The notes under the pieces: model-generated
Told to the model about the DNA's origin: nothing
The model's input: only the letters and a program-made list of their open reading frames with translations
Databases searched by the model: none
Source of the DNA: Nitrospirota bacterium
Lineage (GTDB): Bacteria > Nitrospirota > UBA9217
Assembly (NCBI GenBank): GCA_035625205.1
Contig: DASPQB010000296.1
Coordinates: 3,041 to 67,040, forward strand
Direction of reading: 5' to 3'
Length of the DNA stretch: 64,000 nucleotides
Translations under genes and position numbers: made by a program
In this document: piece by piece, positions 12,671-41,216 of the stretch
How the letters are laid out: the number at the start of each line of letters is the position of its first letter
Numbering within the stretch: the stretch's first letter is position 1

Positions 12671-13102
12671 TTATTTCCCCATATGTTTCGCACCCATGTG
12701 TTTCTCTAACATTGTAACCAATTTATCGCGCTGCTCTGGTGTAAGCATATCATGGATTTCCGTGAACTTCGCGCTAAAGAAGCGGATCATATCATCAGCC
12801 TGAGCCCGGTTTTTCGCCTTCAAGGCTTCCAGTTTCCCCTTGTCGATCTCTGAGCTTCTCATAAGTTCACTGGCTTCCCTCACCGTCTCTTCCCTCATGC
12901 CGGCCATCCAGGGCCGCAAGGCAAGGAATTCATCCTTGATTTGTTCCAGCCTTGCCTTCTGGGCATCGTCCAACTTAAGCTCTTTCGCCATGTGCTGCAC
13001 ATAATGTTCAGCCCGTTGTTCCGGCGTCCGATAGCATCCGGTAACGACCAGTGCCGAGAATGCAATGAGTACAGGCAGGATGGTAATCCTATTTTTTAAC
13101 AT
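12671..13102 (-). CDS. periplasmic CpxP/Spy/ZraP-like (LTxxQ-motif) protein, probable lipoprotein
   Basis: The signal/lipobox is MLKNRITILPVLIAFSALVVTGC. The body is all-helical with LDDAQKARLEQ and LTPEQRDKL motifs. The SD AAAGGAGAAG lies before the ATG at 13102. Confidence 0.65.
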   Translation of the reverse strand: MLKNRITILPVLIAFSALVVTGCYRTPEQRAEHYVQHMAKELKLDDAQKARLEQIKDEFLALRPWMAGMREETVREASELMRSSEIDKGKLEALKAKNRAQADDMIRFFSAKFTEIHDMLTPEQRDKLVTMLEKHMGAKHMGK

Positions 13103-13891
13103 GTCAGCACTTCTCCTTTCCGAATCTGCATGCGTTGACACACCTCCATGTCCTTTTGGATGAAAACATATTTACATTTTAGCACTTTTTTGATTCATGA
13201 GATCAATAGCTTATGGTGATACAAACTCTCAGGAAAGCATTCTCCCTGATGCCCTCGCGAAGTCGCCTGGTCACGATATATGCCTAAGCCTCGTCACAGA
13301 GGGGAAGGAGCGCGGCAAAATCTACACCGCTGAATCGGGCTTCGATATCGACCTTTTTGGATGTCGGTTTTCTTCAATATGGAGAACTCCTGGTGATATG
13401 AATCCCCCCGACCCATAGCTGTGGACATCGTTCAGAAAAGCCTCGTGATAGTGTATCTTTAGGGCACCGAAACGTGAACACATCTTTTTCATTGCGGTAC
13501 CAACCATTCAGTTTTAAAATAGCATTGCCCTTTATGATCCCATGGAAAGAAGGTCAGCGATGACGATGCAGTCCGAGGAAATCCGGCTACGGTATTTGTA
13601 CCGGCGGCTTATCATAGATGGGAAAGCAAGGATTTCCTTCGAAGCAGCGAGGAGGCTTGTCGGCCCGGACTGTGCGTATCACCTCTACGCGGTCGCCGGG
13701 AAAACGAAGCCAAAAAGCAATCCGCGGGCATCACGATCGCGCAAGAAATAAGAGACCTTACCCCCAGATTATCCTGCTATTAACCGTCGTCATCCCGTAC
13801 GCAGATAGTTTACCCACTGTCTTCAAAGCGTCGCTGGGCGTTTTCCGCTGCCCTGCAATGCCTGGAACCGTAATTTCTTGCTCGATCTGGC

Positions 13892-18960: not shown

Positions 18961-19830
18961 TTAATCTCCCTGGAGAAGTTTGGCGGTTAACCAGCCTATC
19001 GCATAGAGCACACCAAGGAGAACAACATCCGTCGGGCCGACCGGCAAATCCCATCGATAGGCGATCAAGAATCCTAAAAACGCGGTCGCGCCGCCAATCA
19101 AAGAGGCCAGCAGTGTAAACTGGCGCATGTTGCGCGCATATTGGTGCGCAGCCAGAGCGGGAATCAGCAAAAATCCGAATGCGATGAGCGGACCGACGCT
19201 GAGTACCGCCATCGAGACAGTTAACCCAATCAGTAAATAGAGCAAACTGTCCCAGAACACGACGTTTTTTCGAAGAATAATCGCCATCTCGCGGTCGAAC
19301 GAAACAAGGAGCAGTTCTTTGTGGAACAGTCCCAGTGCCGCAAGAACAAGAGTAAGCGTTGCCGCGGTCAGCACGAGATCAAAATTGGAGATGGTGATGA
19401 CTTCCCCTTTCAGCATATCAAGCCAGCCGATTTCTCCGTAGGGGTTTTTTGAAAGCACTAAGATGCTCAACGCGGCAGCAACGACGTAAGCGCTGCCGAG
19501 CCGGCCTTCAGGCTGTCCGCGCCCGCGTCGTTCCATGAATGCCAGCACCAGGATTGCGGTCAGGGAGAATGTTATTGAGCCGACAAAGGCGAGCGCATGC
19601 GCGCTGTGTGAGCCATGCTCCGTCAGTTTGAATCCAAGCCACAGAGGGAGCGAGAGAGCGATAGCAACGCCGGTCGAGGAAATCTGGGGCAATGCCACAC
19701 CCATGAACACCAGCCGTCGCATGACGAGAAATACGCCAACGAGCGGGCAAGCGAAGCCGACGAGCACGCTGGTGTAAAGTGAGTTCCGCAGAAGAAAATC
19801 AATAGAGAGAATCTGTTGAAGTGTCTCCAT
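18961..19830 (-). CDS. metal (Zn/Mn/Fe) ABC transporter permease, ZnuB/TroCD family
   Basis: This 289-aa polytopic protein is typical of ABC-3 permeases. It is flanked by the cognate ATPase, with a 1-nt gap. Confidence 0.85.
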   Translation of the reverse strand: METLQQILSIDFLLRNSLYTSVLVGFACPLVGVFLVMRRLVFMGVALPQISSTGVAIALSLPLWLGFKLTEHGSHSAHALAFVGSITFSLTAILVLAFMERRGRGQPEGRLGSAYVVAAALSILVLSKNPYGEIGWLDMLKGEVITISNFDLVLTAATLTLVLAALGLFHKELLLVSFDREMAIILRKNVVFWDSLLYLLIGLTVSMAVLSVGPLIAFGFLLIPALAAHQYARNMRQFTLLASLIGGATAFLGFLIAYRWDLPVGPTDVVLLGVLYAIGWLTAKLLQGD

Positions 19831-19831
19831 G

Positions 19832-20545
19832 TCATCCCATCCCTATTTCAAATATTTCCGCCATCCGTTCGGTTGTGAGCAGTTCGTCAACGGCCCCTTG
19901 GTAAACCTTTCCCTCATGAAGCCAGATGACTTTCTCAGCGTGGTGACGGACGGCCGAAAAGTCGTGAGTAACAAGCAGAACCGTGATTTTCTTTTCTTTG
20001 CATATCTCCGTAATGAACTCCAGCACGGCGGTCGTTGCTTCACGGTCTACCCCCGCCGTGGGTTCGTCCAGTACGAGGACGTCGGGACGTGTCGTCAAGG
20101 CGCGGGCGATGAGCACACGCTGTTGCTGACCACCGGACAGTTCGGCAAAGCGCTTGTGGGAAAAATCCTCTGCGCCCACTGCACGCAGACATTCGCGCGT
20201 GAAGGCGCGTTCGGCCGGGGGAATAAGGTGCCCCACGCGTATGCGACCATACGCCCCCATGAGTGCCACCTCGAACGCCGTGAGCAGGTAAACCGGGTCG
20301 AACTGATTGGATTGGGGGACATAGCCGAACGTGAGCGGGACCCCTGCCGACGCGATATCGATACGGCCGGCGACCGGAGGCAGCAGCCCAAGCAGCGTTT
20401 TGAGCAACGTCGATTTGCCCGAGCCATTAGCGCCGAGAATAGCGGTAAAGCTTGCACGGGTAATGGAGAGCGAAAGTCCGGTCAGCACGGGCTGGCCGTT
20501 GTAGCCTATGCTCAGGTTATCGAGCGTAATCAGTAATTCGGTCAT
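19832..20545 (-). CDS. metal ABC transporter ATP-binding protein, ZnuC/TroB family
   Basis: It has Walker A GANGSGKST, the signature LSGGQQQRVLIARAL and Walker B VLVLDEP. Confidence 0.9.
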   Translation of the reverse strand: MTELLITLDNLSIGYNGQPVLTGLSLSITRASFTAILGANGSGKSTLLKTLLGLLPPVAGRIDIASAGVPLTFGYVPQSNQFDPVYLLTAFEVALMGAYGRIRVGHLIPPAERAFTRECLRAVGAEDFSHKRFAELSGGQQQRVLIARALTTRPDVLVLDEPTAGVDREATTAVLEFITEICKEKKITVLLVTHDFSAVRHHAEKVIWLHEGKVYQGAVDELLTTERMAEIFEIGMG

Positions 20546-20592
20546 CGTCTGTTATGAATGTCCGCCCGCGTTCTTGGGCGGACACCTTCTCC

Positions 20593-21531
20593 TTATCGTT
20601 CTTGCCTTGCATGCATGGCAGTTACCATCGTGTGAATGATGTAATCCATCATTTTAATATACGTCTCCGTCATGGGCACGCCGCCGGGCATAATAGGTAA
20701 TGTTATCATAGTTGCGCCCGTCTGTTCGGCGATGGTTTTTGGCACCTTTTCGGGAAACTGCGGCTCGCGTACGACGAGGGGAACATGTTCAGCCTTCATT
20801 GATTTAATTAATTCCTCGATGTGACGCGGGGTCGGATCTATGCCCGGCTTCAGTTCGATCGTGCCGAAATAATCCAAGCCGAAACGCTCCGCAAAATACG
20901 GCCAGTGTTCGTGGTAGGACACAAACTTCACCCCTTTGAGCTGTTTGGCCTCCGTCGTCCACTCTGCAATTTTGGCATTAAGCCTGGCGATATACATGTC
21001 GCGATTGTGTGTAAACTCCGCCTCATGCCGTGGGGCGAAGGCTACAAGCGCGTTGTAGATATTCTCGATGGCGGTCTTTGCCAAGACAGGATCAAGCATG
21101 TAATGGGGGTTGCCATAGGGATGGACGTCTCCCTGATAGTGGTCGGTCGACCTGGGCACATCGAGCGGGAAGATGTTCCTTGAGCAGTCCACATAGCCGG
21201 GTGTGCCTTTCTGGATATTGGGATTCTTGCTCGCTTCCAGGAGCGCGGGCAGGAATGCGTGCTCGCAATCGAGTCCGATAAGAATCAGCAGGTCCGCCCG
21301 GTTCATCAGCGGTACAAAGCTTGGCTTCATCGGCACCCCGTGCGTGTCTTCGACGCCCGTGGCCAGGCTGTGGACGTCGACGAGGTCCCCTCCCACTGCG
21401 CGAGAAAAATCAGCGAGGTCGGTAAGCGTCGTAACAATTCGGATTTTGGCAGCATGAGCGGGCGTCGCCCAGCCGCACAGTGTCCCGGTGAGGGCTATTA
21501 TCGCCATTACGTTGAATAATTTGGATTTCAA
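20593..21531 (-). CDS. cluster A-I metal-binding lipoprotein/SBP (ZnuA/TroA/MntC family)
   Basis: It has the metal-ligand context DVHPYGNPHYMLDP and HEHWPYF. I place the start at TTG 21531, after GGGAGGA plus 6 nt, giving the signal LKSKLFNVMAIIALTGTLCGWATPAHA. There is no long His-rich loop. The track ORF (to 21645) would overlap the upstream gene by 92 nt. Confidence 0.8.
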   Translation of the reverse strand: MKSKLFNVMAIIALTGTLCGWATPAHAAKIRIVTTLTDLADFSRAVGGDLVDVHSLATGVEDTHGVPMKPSFVPLMNRADLLILIGLDCEHAFLPALLEASKNPNIQKGTPGYVDCSRNIFPLDVPRSTDHYQGDVHPYGNPHYMLDPVLAKTAIENIYNALVAFAPRHEAEFTHNRDMYIARLNAKIAEWTTEAKQLKGVKFVSYHEHWPYFAERFGLDYFGTIELKPGIDPTPRHIEELIKSMKAEHVPLVVREPQFPEKVPKTIAEQTGATMITLPIMPGGVPMTETYIKMMDYIIHTMVTAMHARQER

Positions 21532-21553
21532 AGTATATTCCTCCCTTCCAGAT

Positions 21554-22969
21554 TTACCGTTGCTGCCACCCATGCGCATGTGAGCCGATAATCCAAGCCC
21601 ATTGCACATAGACGGCATCATAAGGGCGCAGGCCGGTCGCGGCATTGTTGTCGGTATGTGTGTATTGCAGGCGCAGCTGGTTCCAGTGGCTCAAGGCCCA
21701 GGTTATGTTCGCGGATTCCGCGGAGGTTTTTCCCTGGTTGTTCAACTCGTTTTCCAGCCATTCGTATTGGATTCCGGTTGTCCACTGCCGATGGAACTTG
21801 TACGTGAGGTATGAGTAAAGGCCAACGGAGCCGACGGACTGGCTGGGCAGTGCATTGCCCGAGGGATCCGTCACGTCATACCGGTTATCACTGTACAGCA
21901 CTTCCGTGCCCCACGTGACGGTCTGAAACTGGTTATTGCGGAGAGGCTTCCAGCTCAGCACCAAGTCCACCCCTACGAGGCGCCGCTCACGTTCGGTAAA
22001 CGTGTTGCCATCTACGGTTGGAAATGACGGATTCGCAGGGTTGGGCGCCCACTGCGCAGTGGTACTCGGATTCCAAAGGCCTGAGATTCCCGGTTCGAGT
22101 GAGATATCGGGTGTTAGGTCATAATATGTGGAGAGGCGTCCCCAATAGTTCAAGCCACTGCCCTGGCGGAAATCGCCGACAAAGTTTGGGGGGTTGTCTC
22201 CGCCAAACTGATCGCCTGCGCCGACCGTCAAGCTGACGTAGTGCTCGACGGGAACCAGCCAATTAATCTGCAACCCGTCCGTTCTGGACTCTCCGCCGAT
22301 GTACTGTGCAAGTACGAGTGGCCGGTTTACAAAGGGTAGCTCATGATCGTGGATGTAGCCCAAGCGTCCGAATTCGCCGAAGAACCGCCCTGCCTTCACC
22401 TCCAAGTTCCCTGGAAATGATGTCGTCTGAATCGCAGCCTCTTCGACCCCCAATGTCGATTCTCCGGTTACCGGGTCGGCTGACGCGTTAACTACCACAT
22501 AGCCCTTTGTGAACGGATCCACTGACGCGGCTGCGTTCAGTTCCACCGAACGCTGAAATATATCATACCCGCCAGGCCTGTCGCTGCCCGTTTCTGCTGA
22601 CCCTTTGCTGCTATAGGAGAATATAGTCTCACCAACGAGCCCGATGGCCGGGTTGAATTCACTGGGAATTTCCTTTTTTTGCGTTTCAACCACTTCATCC
22701 ACCTTCTCGTTCAATTCTTGGACCTTCTGCTGGAGCTCCTGGTTTGACTTCTGCGGTTCGTGGCCATTCTGTTCGTGCAGTTGGTTTTTTTGCTTTGAGA
22801 AATTTTCCTTCAATGAATCTATAGTGCTTTGTTGCTCTTCAATGGTCTTTGACTGTTTTTGCACCGTGTCTTCGAGGTTCTTGAGCCGCTCAGCCGTGTC
22901 GTCGGCAAAAACCGCCGGACCGAACGAGCAGCAAGTAAGAACGACGAGGATGCACAATACTCGTCTCAT
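21554..22969 (-). CDS. putative outer-membrane beta-barrel/porin with N-terminal coiled coil
   Basis: It has the signal MRRVLCILVVLTCCSFGPAVFA, then a heptad-like charged segment (AERLKNLEDTVQKQSKTIEEQQSTIDSLKE...). This is followed by about 380 aa of alternating aromatic/Gly-rich strands (YDVTD, LYSYLTYKF, LRLQYTHTD). The SD GGAGGG lies before the ATG at 22969. Confidence 0.5.
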   Translation of the reverse strand: MRRVLCILVVLTCCSFGPAVFADDTAERLKNLEDTVQKQSKTIEEQQSTIDSLKENFSKQKNQLHEQNGHEPQKSNQELQQKVQELNEKVDEVVETQKKEIPSEFNPAIGLVGETIFSYSSKGSAETGSDRPGGYDIFQRSVELNAAASVDPFTKGYVVVNASADPVTGESTLGVEEAAIQTTSFPGNLEVKAGRFFGEFGRLGYIHDHELPFVNRPLVLAQYIGGESRTDGLQINWLVPVEHYVSLTVGAGDQFGGDNPPNFVGDFRQGSGLNYWGRLSTYYDLTPDISLEPGISGLWNPSTTAQWAPNPANPSFPTVDGNTFTERERRLVGVDLVLSWKPLRNNQFQTVTWGTEVLYSDNRYDVTDPSGNALPSQSVGSVGLYSYLTYKFHRQWTTGIQYEWLENELNNQGKTSAESANITWALSHWNQLRLQYTHTDNNAATGLRPYDAVYVQWAWIIGSHAHGWQQR

Positions 22970-23162
22970 AAGGCCCTCCGTGGATGCGTTGATTATGCAC
23001 GTAAATGGATCGAGCACGCCCTTTCTATGTCCGTCGCAATTTTCCCAAAGCGGTTGTCCCTTACGGAAATATCAAGTTGGCTGTTTCCCTTCCGGTCCAA
23101 GCAACGTCCGAATGGGTAGCCCCGCTCTTACCATTAGTTCATACGATCAAATTGACGGATAT

Positions 23163-23432
23163 TCACACAGGAGGCGCGCGATTGCGCAGGGAATATGAAA
23201 AGAGAGTATCGATAAAAACAGGGGAGGGAGTGGCAACTGTCGTTTCTGTGAAATAGGGGGCGCTGTCAAAGGCAACCACACACTGGCTGGTTCCGGAGAG
23301 ATGATTACTCGCAATACAGACGGGGCATTGGTGATCGTCAGCCGTATTTTCATGGTGGTGCGAAGCGGCCACGACTGTGGCAACTAGGAAAAGGAGAATG
23401 AGAAAAACAGTAATTCGTTTGTTCCAGAGCAT
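23163..23432 (-). CDS. small membrane-anchored His/Cys protein (P1, 89 aa)
   Basis: The sequence is MLWNKRITVFLILLFLVATVVAASHHHENTADDHQCPVCIASNH...TLFSYSLRNRAPPV. It has an SD-like AAGGGG upstream and a sigma70-like promoter just 5-prime. It is a paralogue of the ORF at 25533..25817. Confidence 0.5.
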   Translation of the reverse strand: MLWNKRITVFLILLFLVATVVAASHHHENTADDHQCPVCIASNHLSGTSQCVVAFDSAPYFTETTVATPSPVFIDTLFSYSLRNRAPPV

Positions 23433-23483: not shown

Positions 23484-23830
23484 GCTATTGTGTCACAGAC
23501 CACTCCGCATGGTTGAAACCAGCGGCTTCTCGGGAATTCGGTACATTTATGTCAATCGTCTTTCTCATGCCGTTCGAATGTGCGTTCGAACCAATTCCGG
23601 TGAAGAGACGATGAAATTTCATGACAGTTCCTCAAAACGAATCGGTCGTCATGGCCCGTCATGTCAATGGTGCATATGCTCATGGAGGGGCGCTCCGGCA
23701 TGGTCACCGTACATGGCATAGCGCGCAGGAATCCCATGCCGCAATAGGGCTGCGCAGCATAATAAACCAGGGAACAGAAACGCTTCAAAACGCGCTGCGC
23801 GTTTAAAAGATTAGAGGACGTCGGCTCCTG

Positions 23831-23852
23831 TCCTATTCATTTCCTATTCATT
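23831..23852. repeat. perfect tandem 11-bp direct repeat (TCCTATTCATT x2)
   Basis: Read directly: copies at 23831-23841 and 23842-23852, inside an ORF-poor spacer. Confidence 0.9.
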
Positions 23853-24210
23853 AAAAAGCTTGATGAAAACTTTTTTACGAGACGAGAGAAATAGCCGATC
23901 CCAGCCGCCTCGAGACCCGCAAGTTATCCGCGGTCCGGTACGCTTACGTATCGGTTATAGGCAGCGAGCAACAGAAACAATAAGGCAATCTTTGTTGAAA
24001 TGCTTGGCCAATCGCCCTCATTGTCATCGATGATAAGAATTCTTGGTTGCGTGATAATCACCAAGGAGTGAGAATTGCGCAACGAGGACTATTAGTAGCT
24101 GACTAAGATATTGGCATTGTACCTTCGTCGTTTTGGTTGTTGGAACGTTCAGACCGACATAAAAGTCCTCTGGATAGAGAGAATCAGATAACCACAGTCT
24201 GACAAGCGTC

Positions 24211-24245
24211 CCGGCCTTGTCCCAAACATATAAGGACAAGGCCGG
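24211..24245 (-). terminator. strong GC-rich hairpin downstream of the Met/His-rich gene
   Basis: A 12-bp perfect stem, ccggccttgtcc (24211-24222) with ggacaaggccgg (24234-24245), encloses an 11-nt loop. It lies about 40 nt after the stop at 24287. There is no clear U-tract, so it may be a terminator or a stability element. Confidence 0.4.
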
Positions 24246-24286: not shown

Positions 24287-25039
24287 CTACTTCATCTTCA
24301 TCGGTTCTGCGGATGCCATCTTATTTAGGAGATCAATGACGTTCTTTGCCGCATCGCCGATCTTATGCGTGTCCCCCATCATCGGGCTGCCGCCAGTGGT
24401 AACGCCTTTTTCATGCATTCCGGTCATCGCCTTGCCTGTCATGACTTCCGTAAGTAAGGCGCTGGCGTCGGACAGCATCATTTTCCCATGATCAATGGTA
24501 TATTTGTCGACATCCTTCGACATTCCCATTTGTCCGAGCATCACCATGTTGGACCCTTCAGCTGCCATCTCCAGGGCATGGTCTATCATGATATGCATAT
24601 GGTGCATGGCCATCATGTCGTCCGTCATCGGACCTTCCATGTTCATCTTGTCGAGCAGGTCAGCGACAGTCATGATCGCATTGCCCAATTCATGCGTGTA
24701 TTTCATCATGGGATCGTCGGCATGACCGCCCTTGTGCATGGCCTGCATTTCCGGGCCTTTCAGGGCGCGGTCGACGACCTCTTTGCCCTCCTTCATCATT
24801 TGACGGCCGTGTTCAAGGGTCGTTGGATCGACCGCAGGGGTCATCTTCATATCAGCAAGCATGACCAGGTTCGAGCCTTGGGCAACCATTTCAAGTCCGT
24901 GGTTCATCAGCATGTGCAGATGGTGCATGTCCATGGCGGCATCGCCTCCATGCTTGGCATAAGCCGCACCGAAGAAGCCCATGGACAGCATGAACGCCAC
25001 AGCCATTACAGCCCCTAAAAGTCTCTTCTTGCTTTTCAT
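24287..25039 (-). CDS. secreted Met/His-rich protein with internal tandem duplication (putative periplasmic metal-binding protein)
   Basis: The signal is MKSKKRLLGAVMAVAFMLSMGFFGAAYA. Two repeats of about 105 aa follow: (AMDMHHLHMLMNHGLEMVAQGSNLVMLADM...THELGNAIMTVADLLDKM) and (MMAMHHMHIMIDHALEMAAEGSNMVMLGQM...THKIGDAAKNVIDLLNKM). The SD AAAGGAG lies before the ATG at 25039. Confidence 0.7.
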   Translation of the reverse strand: MKSKKRLLGAVMAVAFMLSMGFFGAAYAKHGGDAAMDMHHLHMLMNHGLEMVAQGSNLVMLADMKMTPAVDPTTLEHGRQMMKEGKEVVDRALKGPEMQAMHKGGHADDPMMKYTHELGNAIMTVADLLDKMNMEGPMTDDMMAMHHMHIMIDHALEMAAEGSNMVMLGQMGMSKDVDKYTIDHGKMMLSDASALLTEVMTGKAMTGMHEKGVTTGGSPMMGDTHKIGDAAKNVIDLLNKMASAEPMKMK

Positions 25040-25532
25040 TTCTTCTGCTCCTTTCGCCATTCTTGGATTTTGCAACAGCCTGCGTGATGTCTATAACGCT
25101 AATTTTTTCAAAATATGGCAAGAGATATCACCTTTGGCCGATTTTCCTCCTGTCTTTGCTTTAACGATCCTCGACTGTAGTATCAAACCTACCCTCATAA
25201 GTGTAGCACGCTGTATTCATAAATGCTGCACCTCTCTGTAAACTATCATCGCTCGCAGCATCAGTGCGCGAACAACGGTTGAAATTTACCTTTCGGTGTC
25301 CGTACCTATTGGAAAAATCCCGGTTCCTCCTCGGAGGCCAAAAAATGACTCCGCTTCGAACACATCATCATGTGCGAGCATGAGACCGCGGATATATCGA
25401 TGCGGAGCCGAGCTTAAAGGGGAGGATTGCCCTCAACGGGCAGTCCATGCGCACGCATACGCACGCACCGATGCTGCGCAGTTGTGAATTCAAAGCCCTT
25501 GACTTCGTTCTTGATAAGCGGAGTGTTGTAGA

Positions 25533-25817
25533 TCAGACCTTCGGGGGGCGTTCGTCTTGATAGGATATTGCAAAAGGTTTAATAAGGGGATTTGGTATTG
25601 CAACGTTGTTGTAAAGCTCGGGAGGTAAGGGACCACAAAGGCACTCGTGCATGCACGGCATGTCTCCATTTCCGGACACGGCAGGCATTGCTGAATGACA
25701 AACGTCAATGGTCCCAATCGCCACCATCGCTCTGTGGCCGGGCAGAAAGGGCAATGAGGGTGGAATAACGATGCTAAGTGCGATTGCCACGAGAACGATT
25801 AATGCCTGCCATTTCAT
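25533..25817 (-). CDS. small membrane-anchored Cys/His protein (P2, about 94 aa)
   Basis: The sequence is MKWQALIVLVAIALSIVIPPSL...DVCHSAMPAVSGNGDMPCMHECLCGP...VAIPNPLIKPFAISYQDERPPKV. Its C-terminus is alignable with P1. The start is uncertain because there is no clear SD; the track ORF extends to 26018. Confidence 0.4.
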   Translation of the reverse strand: MKWQALIVLVAIALSIVIPPSLPFLPGHRAMVAIGTIDVCHSAMPAVSGNGDMPCMHECLCGPLPPELYNNVAIPNPLIKPFAISYQDERPPKV

Positions 25818-26133: not shown

Positions 26134-28596
26134 TCAAGGTTCTACTCCCGGCGCAGGAGGCTTCTTTGGGGCGGTTTCGTTGTTCTCTTCTTTCTTCTCT
26201 TTTTTCTCTTCCCCTTTGTCTTCGGTTTTCAGTTGTTTCGACATCTCCTTGAGCCGCTTGTCTATGAAAAAATTCACCGAACCTTCCGGGTACGATCCAT
26301 CTTCCTTGCGCTCGCCTGCAGGAAGACCGGTCATTAATTCGATCGCCTCACTCACGTTCCTGACCGTATAGACGTGAAATTTTCCTTCCCTCACGGCATC
26401 GATCACTTCTTTCTTCAACATCAGGTTCTTCACGTTGCGCTCCGGGATGATGACGCCCTGATCACCCGTGAGACCGAGGTTCTTACATACGCTGAAAAAC
26501 CCTTCGATCTTTTCGTTCACGCCTCCGATGGGCTGGATTTCTCCCTTCTGGTTGATCGAGCCGGTAATGGCAAAGTTCTGTTTGATCGGCACTTCGGCAA
26601 TGCCGGAGAGGAGCGCTATGAGCTCTGCTGCCGATGCACTGTCGCCTTCGACCTCGCCATAGCTCTGTTCAAAAGCAAGCGTCGCAGTCAAGGACAGCGG
26701 TTTGTCCCTGGCGTAGGTGCCGCCGAGATAGCCCGACAGAATGAGCACGCCCTTGTTGTAGATGCGGCCGGACAGCTTGGCCTCGCGCTCGATGTCGGTC
26801 ACTCCCGATTTACCAAGAAAAACCCTGCTCGTGATGCGGGACGGTTTGCCGAAATAGAAGTCGCCGATGTCGTAGACAGACAAGCCGTTCACCTGCGCGA
26901 CCACTGATCCCGACACGTCGACCATGATCGTACCTTCGGCAATCATTTCCTGAATGCGCTCGTCAACCAGGTTGGCACGGTAGATTTTTTCATTCAGGGC
27001 CTTGTCTACGTCCTCGCTCATCACGGTCTTCTTCCCCTCCTGCACGGCCCAGTACGACGACTCGCGCACCAGGTCCGTAAGGTCGCTGAAGCGGAGCGAG
27101 AGCTTGTTCTTCTTCTCCGCAAGCCGCGAGGCATGCTCTACGATGGCGCCCACCGCGCTCCGGTCGAACGGAAGAAGGCCGTCATTCTGCGTCATGTTCG
27201 CGATGAACACGGCATACCGCATCTTCTCATCCTTAGAATTCGCGGTCTGGGTGTCAAAGTCCGACTTGACCTTGAAGATGTCCTTGAAGTCCTCGTCGTA
27301 GTTATAGAGAAGGTAGTAGAGCCAGGGGCTTCCAAGCATGATGATCTTGAGCGAGACGGGAATAGGCTCCGGCTTGATGCCGCCGGTCCCGTAGCCGTAG
27401 AGTTCCATGAGGTCCTCGATCTTCACCTCGTTCTTCTTGATGATGCGCTTGAGCGCGTCCCATGAGAACGGGCTCCGGAGCACGTCGATGGCATTCAGGA
27501 GGAGATAGCCACCGTTGGCCTGGAGCACTGATCCCGACCGGATCATGGAAAAGTTGGTGTAGAACGCGCCGAAGCGCGCTTTGCGTTCGATGCGGCCCAC
27601 GAGATTATTGTACGTGGGGTTTACCTCATCAATCACCGGGCCTCCCTTGGTCTCGGAGTTGTCGACAATGAGGTTTACCTTGTAGCGTTCGAGGAAGCTC
27701 CCCTTGTCCATGCCCTCAATGGGGAATGGCATCTCCTGCGTCTGCCCCAGGAACTCCCGCAGATTGCCGAGAATATCTTCTTCCATTTCACGCAGGAAAT
27801 CGGGGATGCGGGGATTCATCCGGAATTTTTCCCGGAGGTCATCGAGCTGGTGGCCCATGGCGAAATGCGCGACGTGCCGGTTCAGCTCATGGACTTTCTC
27901 GTGAGCTTCCTTGTCGAGTTGGCGTGCCTTGGCAAGAAAATCACGTATTTCGGAATCAACTTTTTTCTCGTGCTCTTCCAGTTCTCGCTTCTGTTCCGCG
28001 GACAACTCCTCGAGTTCCTGCGGCTGGAGCGGTTTGCCTTTCCACAAGGGGACCTTGACGATGCCGGTACGGGTGATCGTAAGCTGGAATCCCAATTCCT
28101 GTGCACGCTTTCCGGCGTCGCTAAACAGGACTTCTTTGGCCCTCTCGGCCCCTTCTACGATACTCGACTTCTGCTCCTCGTACTCCTTTGATTCGAAGAC
28201 CTTGGGAAGCTCGCTCTGGGTGAACTCGATAAATTTCTCAATGTCCTGCCGGAACTCTCTGCCCTTGCTAGGGGGAAGCTTGATGGCACGCGGCCGATCA
28301 GTGTCCTTGAAGTTATTAATGAAGCACCAGTCGTCCGGTACCGGCATGTTCTGCGAAAGACGCTTGACGATCGACCGGGTAATGGAGTTTCTGCCCGTGC
28401 CCGGGTTGCCGGAGACAAAGATGTTGTAGCCGTGGTTCTTGATCGAGAGGCCGAACTCGATTGCCCTCACGGCCCGCGCCTGGCCGATCACTTCTTCTTT
28501 TCGTACCAGTTCGTTAGTGTTTTGAAACGCAAATTCCGCAGTGTCACAGACATGACGAAGTTCTCTCAGCCCTACTTCACGTTCCTGGATGTTCAT
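26134..28596 (-). CDS. Lon-like protease with degenerate AAA+ motifs (LonC-type)
   Basis: The C-terminal S16 protease domain has the Ser-Lys dyad context GDSASAAELIALLSG ... GGVNEKIEGFF. The P-loop position reads GNPGTGRNS (Arg in place of the Walker Lys). The Walker-B position reads GGYLLLNAIDVL (no DE). A Lys/Glu-rich tail is present (KTEDKGEEKKEKKEENNETAPKKPP). The start is at ATG 28596, after AAGGAGG plus 4 nt. Confidence 0.85.
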   Translation of the reverse strand: MNIQEREVGLRELRHVCDTAEFAFQNTNELVRKEEVIGQARAVRAIEFGLSIKNHGYNIFVSGNPGTGRNSITRSIVKRLSQNMPVPDDWCFINNFKDTDRPRAIKLPPSKGREFRQDIEKFIEFTQSELPKVFESKEYEEQKSSIVEGAERAKEVLFSDAGKRAQELGFQLTITRTGIVKVPLWKGKPLQPQELEELSAEQKRELEEHEKKVDSEIRDFLAKARQLDKEAHEKVHELNRHVAHFAMGHQLDDLREKFRMNPRIPDFLREMEEDILGNLREFLGQTQEMPFPIEGMDKGSFLERYKVNLIVDNSETKGGPVIDEVNPTYNNLVGRIERKARFGAFYTNFSMIRSGSVLQANGGYLLLNAIDVLRSPFSWDALKRIIKKNEVKIEDLMELYGYGTGGIKPEPIPVSLKIIMLGSPWLYYLLYNYDEDFKDIFKVKSDFDTQTANSKDEKMRYAVFIANMTQNDGLLPFDRSAVGAIVEHASRLAEKKNKLSLRFSDLTDLVRESSYWAVQEGKKTVMSEDVDKALNEKIYRANLVDERIQEMIAEGTIMVDVSGSVVAQVNGLSVYDIGDFYFGKPSRITSRVFLGKSGVTDIEREAKLSGRIYNKGVLILSGYLGGTYARDKPLSLTATLAFEQSYGEVEGDSASAAELIALLSGIAEVPIKQNFAITGSINQKGEIQPIGGVNEKIEGFFSVCKNLGLTGDQGVIIPERNVKNLMLKKEVIDAVREGKFHVYTVRNVSEAIELMTGLPAGERKEDGSYPEGSVNFFIDKRLKEMSKQLKTEDKGEEKKEKKEENNETAPKKPPAPGVEP

Positions 28597-28808
28597 GCGG
28601 CCTCCTTCATGAGACACTCTAGCTTTAAGTGTAGGCACTGTATTGCTGGTTGTCAAGGGAGATACCTGCCTCACAGCAGGACCAAACGGCGCTACGGGCC
28701 ATTTCGATGAGGCGCGCCTTCGGGCCCGGAATATTCGCGCGCGCTCAATGCTGCTCCTGCTGAATCATCGGCGGTTCACCGCGCGGCGCTGATCTGCGAA
28801 CGACGCCT

Positions 28809-31754: not shown

Positions 31755-33062
31755 ATGAGCAGCAAATACTTTGCAGCGTTATTATCGTTCCTCATGTTCA
31801 ATGTTCCGTTCAGCGGTCACGCATTGACCTTGGCTGAGGGCGTCAAGACCGCCGTGGAAAGCGGTCGAGACGTCAAGATCGCACAAAGCTATGAGGTTGC
31901 GGCTCGGGCAGCTGTTACCCTCGCGCGATCTCCGTGGCTGCCCTATGTTAATCTCTACGGGAGCCAGACGTGGCTTCAGTATCAGCCTACCGGCAAGTTC
32001 ATAGAGCCGGGGGGTGTCCTGACGGCTGCGGAATCACAGGACCACTTCCTCAGCTACGGCATACAGGCAAATCAGCTTCTGTATGACTTCGGAAAAACGT
32101 CGTCTTCTATCAATGCGGCCCAGTACGGAGTGAAAGCACGGCAGATCGAGACGCAGCGCACGAGGAACCAAACAGCGTTGGACTTCATCGTTGCCTACTA
32201 CGACCTTCTTGAGGCGGAGAAACTCCTCCAGGTCGCAAAAGAGGAGGTAAAAAATGTTGAAGCGCATAAGAGTGACGCCGAAGCGAAGTATGGCGCAGGA
32301 GTCATTACGAAGAATGAGGTGCTCCAAGCCGATGCTACGCTCGCGGACTCCCGCCAGCGTTTGGTAACTGCTGAGAATCTTCACTCCTTCCTGGCATCGA
32401 GGGTTAACAGCCTTCTCTTAAGGCCTCTCAATGAGCCGGTCGTGGTTGAAGAGGTCACTACTCACCCCGCCACCGGAATGACGCTCGACGAAGCATGGAC
32501 TTTTGCTGAAGCGGAAAGCCCTGAACTCAAGGACATCGATGCTCAGATTGCAGCAAAGGAGGAAACTGTACGGACAACACAAGCGGAGTACTTTCCCACG
32601 CTTTATCTTTCCGGCGGTTATGAATACACGGAGAACAGGTACATGGTTCAGCCGAGCAACTGGTCGCTGATCGCCGGAGTGAACATTAATCTCTTTTCCG
32701 GGGGAGCGAGCAGTTCAAAAGTGAGCATTGCCATGAGCGAGCTCCGGTCGCTCAGGCTTGCGCGGGATAAAGTGCTGGATAACATCCGCCTCGCAGTCGA
32801 GAATGCATACCTCGATCTGCAAAGCTCCCGGGAAAAAATCGAGGTCACGAAGACCGCGATCGCTTCGGCTACGGAAAATTTGCGTCTCCAGCGGCTCCGC
32901 TACCACGAGGGCGTCGCAACCGCAACCGACGAGCTCGATGCGGTGACGCTCATGACGACTGCGGAAACAAATTCCTGGAAATCGCTTTACGGAGTCGGCC
33001 GTGCAGAGGCTCAGCTGCTCTATTCGATGGGGAGAGACCTTGCTAGCGTGTATGGGGAATAA
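31755..33062 (+). CDS. TolC-family outer-membrane efflux protein
   Basis: It has a signal peptide and two OEP-like repeats (ALDFIVAYYDLLEAEKLL...; AVENAYLDLQSSREKI...). It is followed by HlyD and MFS genes. Confidence 0.85.
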   Translation: MSSKYFAALLSFLMFNVPFSGHALTLAEGVKTAVESGRDVKIAQSYEVAARAAVTLARSPWLPYVNLYGSQTWLQYQPTGKFIEPGGVLTAAESQDHFLSYGIQANQLLYDFGKTSSSINAAQYGVKARQIETQRTRNQTALDFIVAYYDLLEAEKLLQVAKEEVKNVEAHKSDAEAKYGAGVITKNEVLQADATLADSRQRLVTAENLHSFLASRVNSLLLRPLNEPVVVEEVTTHPATGMTLDEAWTFAEAESPELKDIDAQIAAKEETVRTTQAEYFPTLYLSGGYEYTENRYMVQPSNWSLIAGVNINLFSGGASSSKVSIAMSELRSLRLARDKVLDNIRLAVENAYLDLQSSREKIEVTKTAIASATENLRLQRLRYHEGVATATDELDAVTLMTTAETNSWKSLYGVGRAEAQLLYSMGRDLASVYGE

Positions 33063-33130
33063 TGTGTTCATAGGAATCGTTGACGGAACCCTGGCAGTAT
33101 AGTTATACTGTTGCTCAAGGAGAACGACTC

Positions 33131-34135
33131 ATGGCTGAAGAACAAACGAATGCGATCGGGAAAAGAAAGCGTGCCTTTGCAATTGTTGGCGTTATTATCT
33201 GCATCGGGCTCGTTGCAGGTTTTTTCTACAATAACTATCGCAAAACCCATGTATCCACCGATGACGCCTTTGTCGACGGGAATATCCACACGATTGCAGC
33301 CAAGATCAACGGCACAGTGAAGGCTATTTACGTAGACGACAACCAGTCCGTAAAAAAGGGCGACCTCCTGGTGGAGATCGACCCCGTTGATAACGCCGTG
33401 CGGCTGCAGGAGGCCAAATCGGCGCTCAGTGTCGAGAAAGCGAAGCTAGCCGAGGCGGAAACGAAGATCGAGTCCGCGAAGGCAAACCTTGACCTTGCAC
33501 GCGCAAATCTTAAGCTCGCAGAGACGGACAAGGAGCGAGCGGTTAAGCTTTTTGCAGAGCAGGTCATCCCCCAGGAGCAGTACGACCGGACAATGACTGC
33601 CTATGAAGTAAACCTGGCTCAGGTCAAAGCTGCTGAGGAACAGCTCCGGACGGCCGAGTCGGCGAAGGTCACCCAGATTTCAACGATCAGACAGAAGGAT
33701 GCGCAGGCTGCACTCGCAGAGCTCAATTACGAGTACACGAAGCTCTATTCTCCCGTGGATGGATACGTCACGAGAAGATCGGTTCAGATCGGCAACCAGA
33801 TCCAGGCAGATCAACCGCTCATGGCATTGGTTGCGCTCAATGACCTTTGGATTACGGCGAATTACAAGGAAACCCAAATGGAGAACATCCATCCTGGTCA
33901 GTACGTGGAGATCGAAGTGGACACGTACCCCGGCAAGGTTTTTAAAGGTAAAGTCGACAGCATCATGGCCGGCACTGGTGTATCCTTTTCGCTTTTCCCT
34001 CCCGAAAATGCGACGGGAAATTATGTCAAAGTAGTCCAGCGAATACCCGTAAAGATCGTTCTCCAGGAGGGAACGGACAGAAACCATGTCCTGAGAATCG
34101 GTATGTCTGTGGAACCGACGGTATTGATAAAATGA
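33131..34135 (+). CDS. HlyD/EmrA-family membrane fusion protein
   Basis: It has a TM anchor, a biotinyl-lipoyl-like segment (INGTVKAIYVDDNQSVKKGDLLVEID), a coiled coil and a beta-barrel (YSPVDGYVTRR). The start is at ATG 33131, after AAGGAG plus 8 nt. Confidence 0.85.
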   Translation: MAEEQTNAIGKRKRAFAIVGVIICIGLVAGFFYNNYRKTHVSTDDAFVDGNIHTIAAKINGTVKAIYVDDNQSVKKGDLLVEIDPVDNAVRLQEAKSALSVEKAKLAEAETKIESAKANLDLARANLKLAETDKERAVKLFAEQVIPQEQYDRTMTAYEVNLAQVKAAEEQLRTAESAKVTQISTIRQKDAQAALAELNYEYTKLYSPVDGYVTRRSVQIGNQIQADQPLMALVALNDLWITANYKETQMENIHPGQYVEIEVDTYPGKVFKGKVDSIMAGTGVSFSLFPPENATGNYVKVVQRIPVKIVLQEGTDRNHVLRIGMSVEPTVLIK

Positions 34136-35673
34136 GCAGTAAAACTGCGAGCAGGGGATTAATTGCCTTCACGGTAATGCTCCCAACGCTGATCGAGATC
34201 ATCGACACGTCTGTCGTCAATGTATCGCTTGACCACATCCGGGGCTCGCTCTCCGCGGGGATTGATGAGTCCACGTGGACAATCACCGCCTACCTCGTGT
34301 CAAACGCGATAGTCATCCCCATGGCAGGATGGCTTGCGCGACTCATCGGAAGAAAGAACTACCAGATCTCCTCCATCGCCCTGTTTACGTTCAGTTCCTT
34401 TATGTGCGGCTCTGCATGGAGCCTGTCCAGCCTCGTGTTCTTCAGGGTGCTTCAGGGAATTGGCGGCGGAGGCCTGGTGCCCATCAGCCAGTCCATTCTC
34501 CTTGAGTCCTTTCCTCGTGAGAAGCATGGCCAGGCCATGGCCATCTTCGGCCTGGGAGCCATGTTTGGTCCAATCGTCGGTCCAGTCCTGGGCGGCTGGA
34601 TCACCGACTCCCTGTCCTGGCGGTGGATATTCTACATCAACATTCCGATCGGGATCCTCTCGATCATTATGAACATCATCGTCATCAAGGACCCTCCCTA
34701 TATGCAGCGCCAAAAAATGAAGATCGACTACTTTGGACTTCTTTTCCTGAGCGTGGGGCTTGGCGCGCTCCAGTTCGTGCTCGACAAAGGAGAGAGAGAG
34801 GACTGGTTCGGATCAAACCTCATCGTCACGCTGGCCATTCTCTCGGCGGTTTCGCTTACCTTCCTGGTGATCAACGAGTATTATTCCGAGCATCCGATTG
34901 TCAACCTGAAGCTGTTTAAGGACCGGACCTTCACGAGCGGCGCGACGGTGATGTTCTTCGTTTTCCTGAACCTCTTCGGAAGCATCGTTCTGCTCCCGAT
35001 TTTTTTACAAACGCTCATGGGTTACACATCTTTCTATGCTGGGCTCGTACTCGGCCCTGGCGGTATCGCCACCTTGCTCGCGATGCCGGTTGCGGGTAAG
35101 CTGGTGAGTAAGACCAATCCGAAGCGTATCCTCGCCGTTGGCATGTCGTTCTGCGCTATCAGCACCTTCATGATGTCCCGCTTGAACCTTACCGCGGATT
35201 TTTGGACATTTGTCTGGCCGAGAGTTGTGCTGGGCCTTGGCATGGGTCTTACCTTCATTCCTCTGACAACCATGACGCTCTCTCATATCCCGAGGGAGCA
35301 CATGACCGAGGCCAGTTCCGTGTACAACCTGCTGCGGAACCTTGGGGGCAGTGTCGGCATCGCATTTACGACGACGATGCTCTCGCGTCGCGCGCAATTC
35401 CACCAGACCAGGCTTGCGGGGCACCTGTCGTCATTTGATACTGCCTACCATTTCCAGAACAATGCACTGGCGTCGTTTCTCGGCTCAAGGGGAATTCCGC
35501 ACAGCGGCTCAAACGGCTTACTGTACGGAGAATTGATTCGCCAATCAACAACCCTTGCCTTCAACGATGCGTTCCTGACGATCTGCATCCTCATCTTCTG
35601 CGTTCTTCCACTGGTATTCATCATGAAGCGGGCAGCTCCCGCTGCGGGCGGTCCCCCGGCAGACGTGCATTAA
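34132..35673 (+). CDS. DHA2-family MFS drug efflux transporter (EmrB-like, 14 TM)
   Basis: Typical EmrB/QacA motifs are present (LDTSVVNVSL-type start, GWLARLIGRK, LQGIGGGGL). It overlaps the upstream gene by 4 nt. Confidence 0.9.
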   Translation: MSSKTASRGLIAFTVMLPTLIEIIDTSVVNVSLDHIRGSLSAGIDESTWTITAYLVSNAIVIPMAGWLARLIGRKNYQISSIALFTFSSFMCGSAWSLSSLVFFRVLQGIGGGGLVPISQSILLESFPREKHGQAMAIFGLGAMFGPIVGPVLGGWITDSLSWRWIFYINIPIGILSIIMNIIVIKDPPYMQRQKMKIDYFGLLFLSVGLGALQFVLDKGEREDWFGSNLIVTLAILSAVSLTFLVINEYYSEHPIVNLKLFKDRTFTSGATVMFFVFLNLFGSIVLLPIFLQTLMGYTSFYAGLVLGPGGIATLLAMPVAGKLVSKTNPKRILAVGMSFCAISTFMMSRLNLTADFWTFVWPRVVLGLGMGLTFIPLTTMTLSHIPREHMTEASSVYNLLRNLGGSVGIAFTTTMLSRRAQFHQTRLAGHLSSFDTAYHFQNNALASFLGSRGIPHSGSNGLLYGELIRQSTTLAFNDAFLTICILIFCVLPLVFIMKRAAPAAGGPPADVH

Positions 35674-35733: not shown

Positions 35734-35743
35734 TGAAAAATAT

Positions 35744-35860
35744 TCCGGCAGCGTCCTACTTTCCCATGACCTCTCGATCATAGTATCATCGGCCCTGGAG
35801 GACTTTACTTCCGTGTTCGGGATGGGAACGGGTGTGACCCCTCCGGTATAGCCACCGAAA
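35744..35860 (-). rRNA. rrf: 5S ribosomal RNA
   Basis: The reverse complement reads ...CGGTGGCTATACCGGAGGGGTCACACCCGTTCCCATCCCGAACACGGAAGT...GGGAAAGTAGGACGCTGCCGG, a canonical 5S sequence. The ends are approximate. Confidence 0.9.
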
Positions 35861-35951
35861 ACCTTGTAACGATAATCAATGACACCGAATAAGCAAGAAT
35901 ACTTCGAAAAGCCGAATCTGTCAGAAGCAGATTTGGAGAATAAATAAATAG

Positions 35952-38952
<3,001 letters not shown>

Positions 38953-39117
38953 CCGAACCTGCCTCTGGCAGATTCGGCGTTTCTTGATTGCCTCAGCTTT
39001 TCTTGTACCCTTGCTTATTCAGTTGTCAAAGAACAATCCCGAGCTACGCTCGGGAATTCAAAATTCAAGATTCACCACTCAACTCCTTGAATGTTGAATT
39101 TTAAATTTTGAATTATT

Positions 39118-39193
39118 TGGTGGAGCTGAGCGGGATCGAACCGCCGACCCCCTGCTTGCAAAGCAGGTGCTCTCCCAGCTGAGCTACAGCCCC
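39118..39193 (-). tRNA. tRNA-Ala (anticodon TGC)
   Basis: The reverse complement is GGGGCTGTAGCTCAGCTGGGAGAGCACCTGCTTTGCAAGCAGGGGGTCGGCGGTTCGATCCCGCTCAGCTCCACCA. It has G3:U70 and an encoded CCA. Confidence 0.95.
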
Positions 39194-39271
39194 GATAACA
39201 ATTTTAGATTTCAGATCTTTGATTGGGGATTTTTCAATCAACAATCGGTATTCTGCAATCCGCAATTGACT

Positions 39272-39348
<77 letters not shown>

Positions 39349-39499
39349 GCTCTTTCGCTTCCATCCGGCTCAGGACGTTTCCCGGTGGTAACGCTCCGAG
39401 CTCATGCCTATAGCCCTGAGCATTGCTCATGGTCCTTCAAAACTAAATAGGTGCTGGCAGGAACGACCTAAGATGAGAGATTACGAATAACCTCTATTC

Positions 39500-41066
<1,567 letters not shown>

Positions 41067-41216
41067 AAAAAGCTGATCCTTTTATGCAAAGTTACACAAA
41101 GTAACTTGACAAGTTTTTGTTACCCAAAACCCGCCGTTTCAAAAGCTAAAAAAGCTGTTTGAAACTTAATGCACCTATTTAGTTTTCAAAGACCATGCAT
41201 ACTTCGCAGAATATTA

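Follow-up and report, generated by a model that had tools for sequence, protein, structure and literature searches.

An unnamed family of methionine- and histidine-rich tandem-repeat proteins in Nitrospirota of peat and soil, with a proposed role in periplasmic copper handling

The stretch of DNA analysed here, referred to below as the window, comprises 64,000 nucleotides from a Nitrospirota bacterium of peat (GenBank assembly GCA_035625205.1, contig DASPQB010000296.1, positions 3,041 to 67,040 of the forward strand). On its minus strand lies a gene for a putatively secreted protein with very many methionines and histidines, for which an earlier note, made from the sequence, had suggested a tandem duplication and a role in binding copper or silver. 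The gene and the features that belong to it are as follows.

24287..25039, minus strand: gene of the Met/His-rich secreted protein, stop codon included (open reading frame; 187 homologues, conserved over the full length)
25048..25052, minus strand: Shine-Dalgarno sequence AGGAG, 8 nt 5' of the ATG and invariant in relatives
24956..25039, minus strand: signal peptide, residues 1-28 (MKSKKR..., hydrophobic core, cleavage between AYA and KH; inspection of the translation)
24635..24943, minus strand: repeat unit 1, residues 33-135, with three long helices and one short (envelope of the unit profile)
24308..24622, minus strand: repeat unit 2, residues 140-244, with the architecture of unit 1 (unit profile; 42% identical to unit 1)
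24488..25018, plus strand: opposite-strand shadow open reading frame, no gene (non-synonymous bias; stops in relatives)

Gene, tandem repeat and predicted fold

The reading frame begins with an ATG at 25039 and ends with a TAG stop at 24287-24289. Its product has 250 residues, one fewer than the earlier note had counted; the hand count of 42 Met, 16 His and no Cys was exact. Methionine thus makes up 16.8% and histidine 6.4% of the protein, and 38 of the methionines lie in the mature part of 222 residues. For comparison, the 34 other open reading frames (ORFs) of at least 200 residues in the window have a mean Met content of 2.4% and a maximum of 5.4%. Judged by inspection, the N-terminus, MKSKKRLLGAVMAVAFMLSMGFFGAAYA followed by KH, reads as a Sec-type signal with an AXA cleavage site; in some relatives a lipobox replaces this plain signal. 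Translation, alignment and composition together bear out the suggestion of a secreted, tandem-duplicated Met/His-rich protein.

We regard 24287-25039 as a real and intact gene because substitutions relative to homologues concentrate at the third codon position. Against the relative at locus L007 (88% identical), 15, 13 and 62 substitutions fall on codon positions 1, 2 and 3, respectively, and an excess at position 3 was seen against nine relatives. The codons that changed with respect to L007 comprise 48 synonymous and 29 non-synonymous cases in the sense frame, as opposed to 7 and 70 in the in-phase antisense frame. Expression of the opposite-strand ORF (24488-25018), which had been named among the findings that would overturn the proposal, was considered as well; antisense coding is excluded by this substitution pattern, and the antisense frame is broken by one to seven stop codons in each of the nine relatives compared. 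The ORF is open and His-rich because ATG, read in reverse, gives CAT (His). Metatranscriptome contigs from peat and wetland, which are assembled, unstranded and derived from related strains only, overlap the gene in part, with about 90-96% identity, one contig reaching into the leader.

The internal repeat of about 105 residues, as read from the sequence earlier, was confirmed: 43 of 103 aligned positions are identical between the two units (42%), and both example pairs that had been quoted occur in the alignment. The BLOSUM62 local score of one half against the other is 228, as compared with 38 +/- 8 (maximum 74) for 300 shuffles of one half.

Conservation was computed over 375 aligned units of the family, a column being counted as conserved when at least 80% of the units agree, and positions are given in the numbering of unit 1. 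Seven histidines (H39, H40, H42, H47, H77, H102 and H116) and nine methionines (M36, M51, M60, M64, M66, M81, M98, M112 and M132) reach this level, as do G55, N57, L61, D71, G78, G95, T115 and L129. Within the two units of the window protein, 14 of the 15 His stand in conserved columns, and where histidine is replaced, Gln, Arg or Asn takes its place. Similarly, 18 of the 35 Met occupy conserved columns; 13 more alternate with Leu, Ile or Val among relatives, and therefore occupy hydrophobic core positions, and only 3 alternate with polar residues. We propose that the interior and the helix interfaces are largely built of methionine. A cavity lined by Met and His may likewise be present, as suggested by the pattern of substitutions, the geometry of the model forming no part of the argument. 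A helical wheel of the first helix of each unit was uninformative, since Met, His and hydrophobic residues occupy all faces.

The AlphaFold model of the whole protein is all-helical (predicted local distance difference test, pLDDT, 86.9; predicted template modelling score, pTM, 0.81), with the signal-peptide stretch at low confidence. The helices of unit 1 span residues 34-63, 71-94, 96-106 and 110-130, and unit 2, when modelled alone, forms an antiparallel three-helix bundle (pLDDT 91.4). Because both all-helical models are confident, the protein as modelled is a defined folded structure and not a disordered sponge. Fold comparison by Foldseek gave, for the whole model, PhoU-like proteins as the best, weak matches (template modelling score 0.46-0.52, E 0.04) along with designed bundles, none of them significant, and for the single unit only generic three-helix bundles (PTS EIIA, syntaxin Habc, designed coils).

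Distribution of the family

An exhaustive profile search over 1.84 billion representatives, clustered at 50% identity, yielded a small family of only about 170 such clusters, most of them from Nitrospirota. The homologue search found 187 proteins, and among the 120 matches listed many are full-length at 49-94% identity. Most matches with a genome belong to metagenome-assembled genomes (MAGs) of Nitrospirota from peat and soil (Thermodesulfovibrionia, Dissulfurispiraceae and one Nitrospira); a few members come from Burkholderiales, Rhizobiaceae, Desulfuromonadales and Nitrococcus mobilis Nb-231. Forms with one unit, of about 135-145 residues, exist besides those with two, the median Met content being 16.4% in two-unit and 9.8% (down to 4.3%) in single-unit members. 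In the databases the homologues are labelled 'hypothetical protein' or bear obvious mis-transfers.

Individual MAGs can hold two or three paralogous copies in differing neighbourhoods (L015/L016/L028, L019/L025 and L010/L031). A close relative at L021 (10001-10351; 81% identical), situated on a 957-kb contig, appears as an ORF of 116 residues with a C-terminal piece of 149 residues (P0098), and this seemingly truncated or frameshifted copy could be either a pseudogene or an artefact of assembly. The homologue of N. mobilis Nb-231 (L043, 9887-10303) has a single unit and belongs to a cultured nitrite oxidiser.

Scans of the window protein against Pfam and NCBIfam returned noise only (DUF3231, E 1.1; SigB, E 0.07), Pfam had a model for none of the 35 diverse members scanned (the window protein and 34 relatives), noise apart, and the family profile found nothing among all PDB sequences at E up to 10. 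A confident match to a non-metal protein family, which would have told against metal binding, is thus absent from Pfam, NCBIfam and the PDB sequences. Neither was a description of the family found in the literature searched. The family, its tandem three-helix architecture and its density of conserved potential ligands are therefore undescribed in the literature searched and in these three databases.

Neighbouring genes, leader peptides and cis elements

The genes around the family were surveyed by clustering the ORFs of 43 non-redundant loci, a neighbour being any gene within 5 kb of the Met-rich gene. The following families recur.

ABC (ATP-binding cassette) ATPases: 11 of 43 loci
94-residue small peptide 'F3': 10 of 43 loci
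TlpA/AhpC-like thioredoxin: 8 of 43 loci
FtrD-like protein: 8 of 43 loci
Outer-membrane barrel of about 355 residues with CxxCGC: 8 of 43 loci
MauG-like di-haem peroxidase: 6 of 43 loci
Tandem YtkA-like protein: 6 of 43 loci
CopC: 5 of 43 loci
ExbB, ExbD and TonB: 5 of 43 loci each
CopD: 4 of 43 loci

TonB-dependent receptors also recurrently adjoin the Met-rich gene. A typical order is that of L005, where F3, thioredoxin, barrel, Met-rich gene, an unannotated gene of family F11, CopC and CopD follow one another. The barrel gene of about 355 residues often precedes the Met-rich gene (for example L001, 8073-9146). A further barrel, encoded at L020 (739-2316), is very Met-rich, with runs such as MTMDMYMFMAMYG, and is fused to a NosL domain; it has the C-terminal strand motif alone in common with the CxxCGC barrel.

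In the window itself, the surroundings of the gene contain the following features.

25533..25817, minus strand: 'F3' small exported peptide, 94 residues (D-V-C-H, DMPC, C-terminal Q-x-E-R-P-P-K-V-stop)
23655..24121, minus strand: decayed copD remnant covering the C-terminal ~135 residues, with in-frame stops and a frameshift (tblastn)
23163..23432, minus strand: CruR/CutF-type (DUF2946-like) leader peptide (membrane anchor, HHH, CPVC, 45 residues, RAPPV-stop)
18961..23017, minus strand: operon behind the CruR-like peptide (Pfam), consisting of the next four genes
21554-23017, minus strand: unannotated outer-membrane protein
20593-21645, minus strand: ZnuA-like binding protein (Pfam)
19832-20545, minus strand: ABC ATPase (Pfam)
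18961-19830, minus strand: ABC-3 permease (Pfam)

The copD remnant was detected by tblastn with the CopD proteins of L021, L009 and L005 (E 2e-23 and 4e-9); the matches fall in two frames and contain stops. At L021 the order is Met-rich gene, (F11), copC, copD, cruR-like gene, outer-membrane protein gene and znuA-like gene, which we take as ancestral; L017 has kept the Met-rich gene, F11 and copD, with the module of cruR-like, outer-membrane protein and ZnuA-like genes placed upstream. The window genes that follow the copD stub match part of the order in L021, and the lineage of the window has therefore shed F11 and copC entirely and copD for the most part. The Met-rich gene itself is intact in the window despite these losses.

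CruR (Bp2923 of B. pertussis) is an upstream ORF of the DUF2946 type, which has been shown experimentally to sense copper and which controls a TonB-receptor operon in Bordetella by copper-dependent ribosome stalling (PMC9426467); its counterpart in Rhodobacter, CutF of R. capsulatus, senses copper experimentally as well (bioRxiv 10.1101/2025.02.05.636593). The peptide at 23163-23432, whose gene lies 0.8 kb downstream of the Met-rich gene, resembles CruR in its export signal, CXXC motif, spacer, C-terminal RAPP, position at the head of an operon and long intergenic gap. Its N-terminal MLWNKRITVFLILLFLVATVVAAS... is, by inspection, an export signal or membrane anchor; the spacing from CPVC to the RAPPV-stop is exactly 45 residues, as in the criterion published for CruR (PMC9426467); and, as the first gene of its operon, it is followed after a gap of 145-193 nt by the gene of the outer-membrane protein, which has the same orientation. 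It differs from CruR and CutF in falling below the Pfam threshold (14.4 bits for PF11162, DUF2946, against a gathering threshold of 23.7, its relatives reaching 15.9-22.7 bits) and in coming from Nitrospirota, a phylum absent from the CruR survey. The succession of CruR-like peptide and outer-membrane protein/ZnuA-like genes recurs in L017, L021 and L027. NCBIfam typing assigned no particular metal to the ZnuA-like protein; the arrangement suggests a cluster-9 importer of the 'zinc/manganese type' under copper-type leader control.

Across the family, CruR-type peptides (CXXC, 44-46 residues, RAPP) were found in 11 of 45 loci, and in three of them the peptide stands directly 5' of the Met-rich gene, at 55 nt (L039), 60 nt (L034) and 177 nt (L036); in L034 and L039 tandem YtkA-like and MauG-like genes lie downstream of the Met-rich gene. 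No other observation ties the family to copper as directly as these adjacent peptides. A published survey lists TonB receptors and MbnPH-like, AhpC_TSA, CopC and YcnI genes as typical content of CruR operons, and the gene content of the loci studied here is much alike.

The F3 peptide precedes the Met-rich gene by 493 nt in the window, 413 nt in L001 and 305 nt in L021, and members of the F3 family were located at L001 (7434-7718 and 9304-9588), L005 (7763-8044), L021 (9412-9696) and L028 (10703-10990). All members have a fixed length of 94 residues with invariant C40, H41, P91 and P92, a DMPC motif and the C-terminus Q-x-E-[RH]-P-P-K-x-stop, and F3 has no Pfam match. Instead of the CXXC/45/RAPP pattern of CruR, F3 shows a CH pair at a constant distance of 48 residues from [RH]PPK-stop, a motif that is undescribed. 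F3 may represent another type of sensing arrest peptide, akin to CruR and CutF. Immediately upstream of the F3 gene, the window encodes an AAA protease of 846 residues similar to LonC/LonB (26134-28674, minus strand).

Two cis elements flank the coding sequence.

25040..25215, minus strand: conserved leader (about 155-176 nt) that opens with an extended -10-like box (alignment)
24211..24245, minus strand: conserved stem-loop with 12 Watson-Crick pairs, one G-U pair and a 9-nt loop

The -10-like box follows the pattern TGnTATACT and reads TGCTACACT at about 25200-25208 in the window and TGCTATACT in relatives. A second AGGAGG occurs in the leader, at a distance of about 100 nt on the 5' side of the real Shine-Dalgarno sequence. 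With nhmmer the leader was found in the close clade only (at least 71% identical; E 1e-35 to 1e-43). A riboswitch was considered and rejected: the leader has no Rfam match and no stable or covarying consensus fold (-4.5 kcal/mol), and it is confined to that clade. The 12-bp hairpin that had been noticed behind the gene is real. It begins 41 nt past the stop codon, has no T-run directly behind it and recurs at the same place in six relatives; a dispersed repeat was rejected by searches, which found the element to be gene-specific. The stem-loop is a candidate intercistronic stabiliser or partial terminator, and its placement between the Met-rich gene and copC in L001 fits this.

Further afield, the window contains additional genes for envelope stress and metals, namely an LTXXQ/Metal_resist (CpxP/Spy-like) protein (12671-13141, minus strand), and an efflux set of OEP, CusB/HlyD-like and MFS (major facilitator superfamily) proteins (31755-35673, plus strand). 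About 11 kb off the Met-rich gene lies a complete rRNA operon with 16S, two tRNAs, 23S and 5S (35743-41068, minus strand).

Copper handling, rival explanations and known systems

Taken together, these observations lead us to favour, as the probable but by no means settled reading, a folded, multi-site periplasmic protein that binds Cu(I) and serves as a buffer or relay. The copper proposal of the earlier note has thereby gained independent support from gene context, namely the synteny with CopC and CopD, the copD remnant, the CruR-type peptides, NosL and the YtkA-like proteins. Exported by the Sec pathway, the two tandem three-helix bundles would bind several Cu(I) ions through sites formed by His and Met. 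The protein would act as a folded buffer or relay for copper that enters the periplasm through outer-membrane transporters, and would hand the metal on to partners such as CopC/CopD, NosL or YtkA-like proteins; equally, it might keep copper out of harm's way. Its expression would probably be tied to periplasmic copper by exported ribosome-stalling leader peptides of the CruR/CutF type. We infer that copper is the ligand and is bound at several sites, and likewise which way it flows and how the gene is regulated. We lean towards acquisition or buffering in view of the TonB systems, CopCD, NosL and CruR-type control that go with the gene; a buffer specifically on the uptake side is a tentative choice, which we hold somewhat short of probable.

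Several points weigh against this proposal. Copper is suggested as the ligand from composition and neighbours only, and in the window the proposed partners are partly missing, copC being gone and copD reduced to a decayed stub. About half of the loci show none of the copper-linked families, many of these contigs being short, and 28 of 45 loci have no leader peptide within reach. The TonB-dependent receptors beside the gene are not of the OprC type according to NCBIfam. Other metals are represented nearby by NikR (L005) and, in the window, by the Zn/Mn-type ZnuA-like binding protein and CbiM. On one side of the single-unit homologue of N. mobilis lies a FhuA-like siderophore receptor and on the other a FecA/PqqU-like receptor that carries an STN signalling domain, a warning that distant family members may not be copper proteins. 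Finally, genes for RND (resistance-nodulation-division) efflux lie close to two relatives, so that uptake and detoxification are indistinguishable on this evidence.

Some of these points lead to the alternative that survives best, although we consider it unlikely: the protein might serve a different cargo of TonB-dependent uptake, such as nickel or cobalt, zinc, or a metallophore complex, of iron or otherwise. NikR adjoins copD in L005, the ZnuA-like protein and CbiM are encoded downstream in the window, one of the receptors in Nitrococcus scores above the cut-off of its FhuA-like model (405 bits), and the seven conserved His of each unit would be in keeping with Ni or Zn. Thioethers, however, bind Ni(II), Zn(II) or Fe(III) poorly, and about nine Met per unit are conserved at the 80% level; moreover, the specific neighbours are CopC, CopD, NosL and YtkA-like proteins, and three loci have CruR-type sensors directly 5' of the gene. 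Those distant single-unit members that lie near siderophore receptors are much less Met-rich and may differ in ligand.

A second alternative, which we judge improbable, is that the protein is a very divergent member of the DUF305 family and acts exactly like CopM of Synechocystis (sll0788; PDB 5FEJ), that is, in periplasmic copper sequestration for resistance. CopM is secreted and contains two DUF305 units, an HH motif and 23 Met and 8 His in 196 residues, and it binds Cu(I) with an apparent dissociation constant of ~4e-16 (PMC4335983). Both proteins are secreted or periplasmic, tandem, Met/His-rich and all-helical, carry HH at a helix start and adjoin copper genes, and M-x-x-H-A-x-E-M-A loosely recalls the M-x-x-HH-x-x-A-x-x-MA pattern, from which a resemblance to DUF305 had first been suspected. 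This suspicion was not borne out. PF03713 (DUF305) matched neither the window protein (E up to 10) nor any of the 35 diverse members (E up to 0.1); the profile search of the PDB gave no support; and hhalign against CopM, 3BT5 and 2QF9 returned a probability of 0.2% (E 0.26), the DUF305 side being a thin alignment of three sequences that had been retrieved from the PDB with an approximate DUF305 query used for retrieval only. Nor is CopM among the top 50 Foldseek matches of either the whole model or the single unit. The structure prediction that had been suggested as a check shows three-helix units of about 105 residues and no DUF305 helical hairpins, whereas the units of CopM are hairpins of about 70 residues with two helices, which together form a four-helix bundle. 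CopM has one HH pair as against seven conserved His per unit here; the HH pair of the window protein stands in a different register to the following A-x-x-M-A, the distance from His to MA being off by two residues. CopM belongs to the copMRS two-component resistance operon, whereas the present family is accompanied by uptake-type genes and leader-peptide control. The likeness is thus one of design, with no evidence of common descent; membership in DUF305 is not supported, and this alternative is largely refuted at the level of sequence and fold. By analogy the protein may still work like CopM.

It is very improbable, in our estimate, that the protein is a sacrificial antioxidant of an anaerobe's periplasm, whose methionines would intercept O2-derived species or hypochlorite and be recycled by methionine sulfoxide reductases. 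The 38 Met in 222 mature residues and the frequent thioredoxin-like (AhpC/TlpA-type) neighbours would agree with it, as would the reported finding that Met-rich periplasmic copper proteins are targets of oxidation and of repair by MsrP (PMC9302797). A scavenger, however, needs exposed Met, and here most of the variable Met are core-like and 18 are conserved in position; the conserved His, Gly, Asn, Asp and Thr indicate defined sites, and no methionine sulfoxide reductase genes were seen among the recurrent neighbours in the 43 loci. Least probable of all is a haem-binding bundle with axial Met/His ligands as in cytochrome b562, serving TonB-dependent haem uptake: the helical bundle, the conserved His and Met and the nearby TonB receptors, some of which score best with haem-receptor models (below cut-off), would allow it, but the conserved His and Met far exceed the needs of haem ligation, b562-type folds came up in neither fold search, and the neighbours are copper chaperones, not genes of haem utilisation.

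If the favoured reading of a periplasmic Cu(I) buffer or relay is true and the protein binds several Cu(I) ions, it would store or relay copper without thiols by a novel structural route, would be useful for marking copper acquisition in anoxic soils and would provide a compact scaffold for binding Cu(I) or Ag(I). Copper in peat and soil is scarce and strongly bound. To our knowledge, periplasmic copper handling is known from few families (CusF, CopC, PcoE/SilE, CopM, Csp1 and PCuAC), and nearly all studies of these concern Proteobacteria and cyanobacteria. Thiol-free binding of Cu(I) by Met and His in the periplasm is an already known kind of chemistry; what is added is a family of its own, as yet unnamed, whose members show an extreme, position-specific Met/His pattern and a confident predicted fold in uncultured Nitrospirota of peat and soil. 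The neighbouring leader peptides would in addition extend the CruR/CutF mechanism to a new phylum and suggest a second class of motif.

Among known systems, the nearest in topology are the PhoU-like six-helix bundles (PDB 3L39, 1T72), which likewise consist of two tandem three-helix repeats, and PhoU repeats carry conserved metal-binding motifs. PhoU is cytoplasmic, however, with acidic E/DxxxD motifs; the window protein has neither sequence similarity nor a Pfam match to PhoU (PF01895), and the fold match is below significance. PcoE and SilE share with the present protein the periplasmic location, the abundance of Met and His and the lack of Cys, as well as multi-site Cu(I)/Ag(I) chemistry, which the window protein would have in common with them. 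SilE is reported to be intrinsically disordered until metal is bound (PMC5008109). The window protein, by contrast, is predicted to be folded (pLDDT 87-91), shows position-specific conservation and has no sequence similarity to PcoE or SilE, and a disordered sponge of their type was rejected in view of the confident helical models (86.9 and 91.4).

The Csp proteins offer a comparison in function. Csp1 and Csp3 are Cys-lined four-helix bundles that store many Cu(I) ions, and Csp1 is exported and serves copper supply. Like them, the window protein is a predicted helical bundle whose interior, judged by the substitution pattern, would be lined with soft ligands; unlike them, it has no Cys and would use Met and His in three-helix units, and no Csp protein appeared among the Foldseek matches of the whole model or the single unit. 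A comparable storage capacity is a conjecture drawn from this analogy. It is conceivable, if rather doubtful as a whole, that the family represents a Cys-free counterpart of Csp: a Met/His-lined periplasmic bundle that banks many Cu(I) ions in anaerobic peat Nitrospirota and is switched by F3-type peptides (D-V-C-H, 48 residues, [RH]PPK-stop) together with those of the CruR type.

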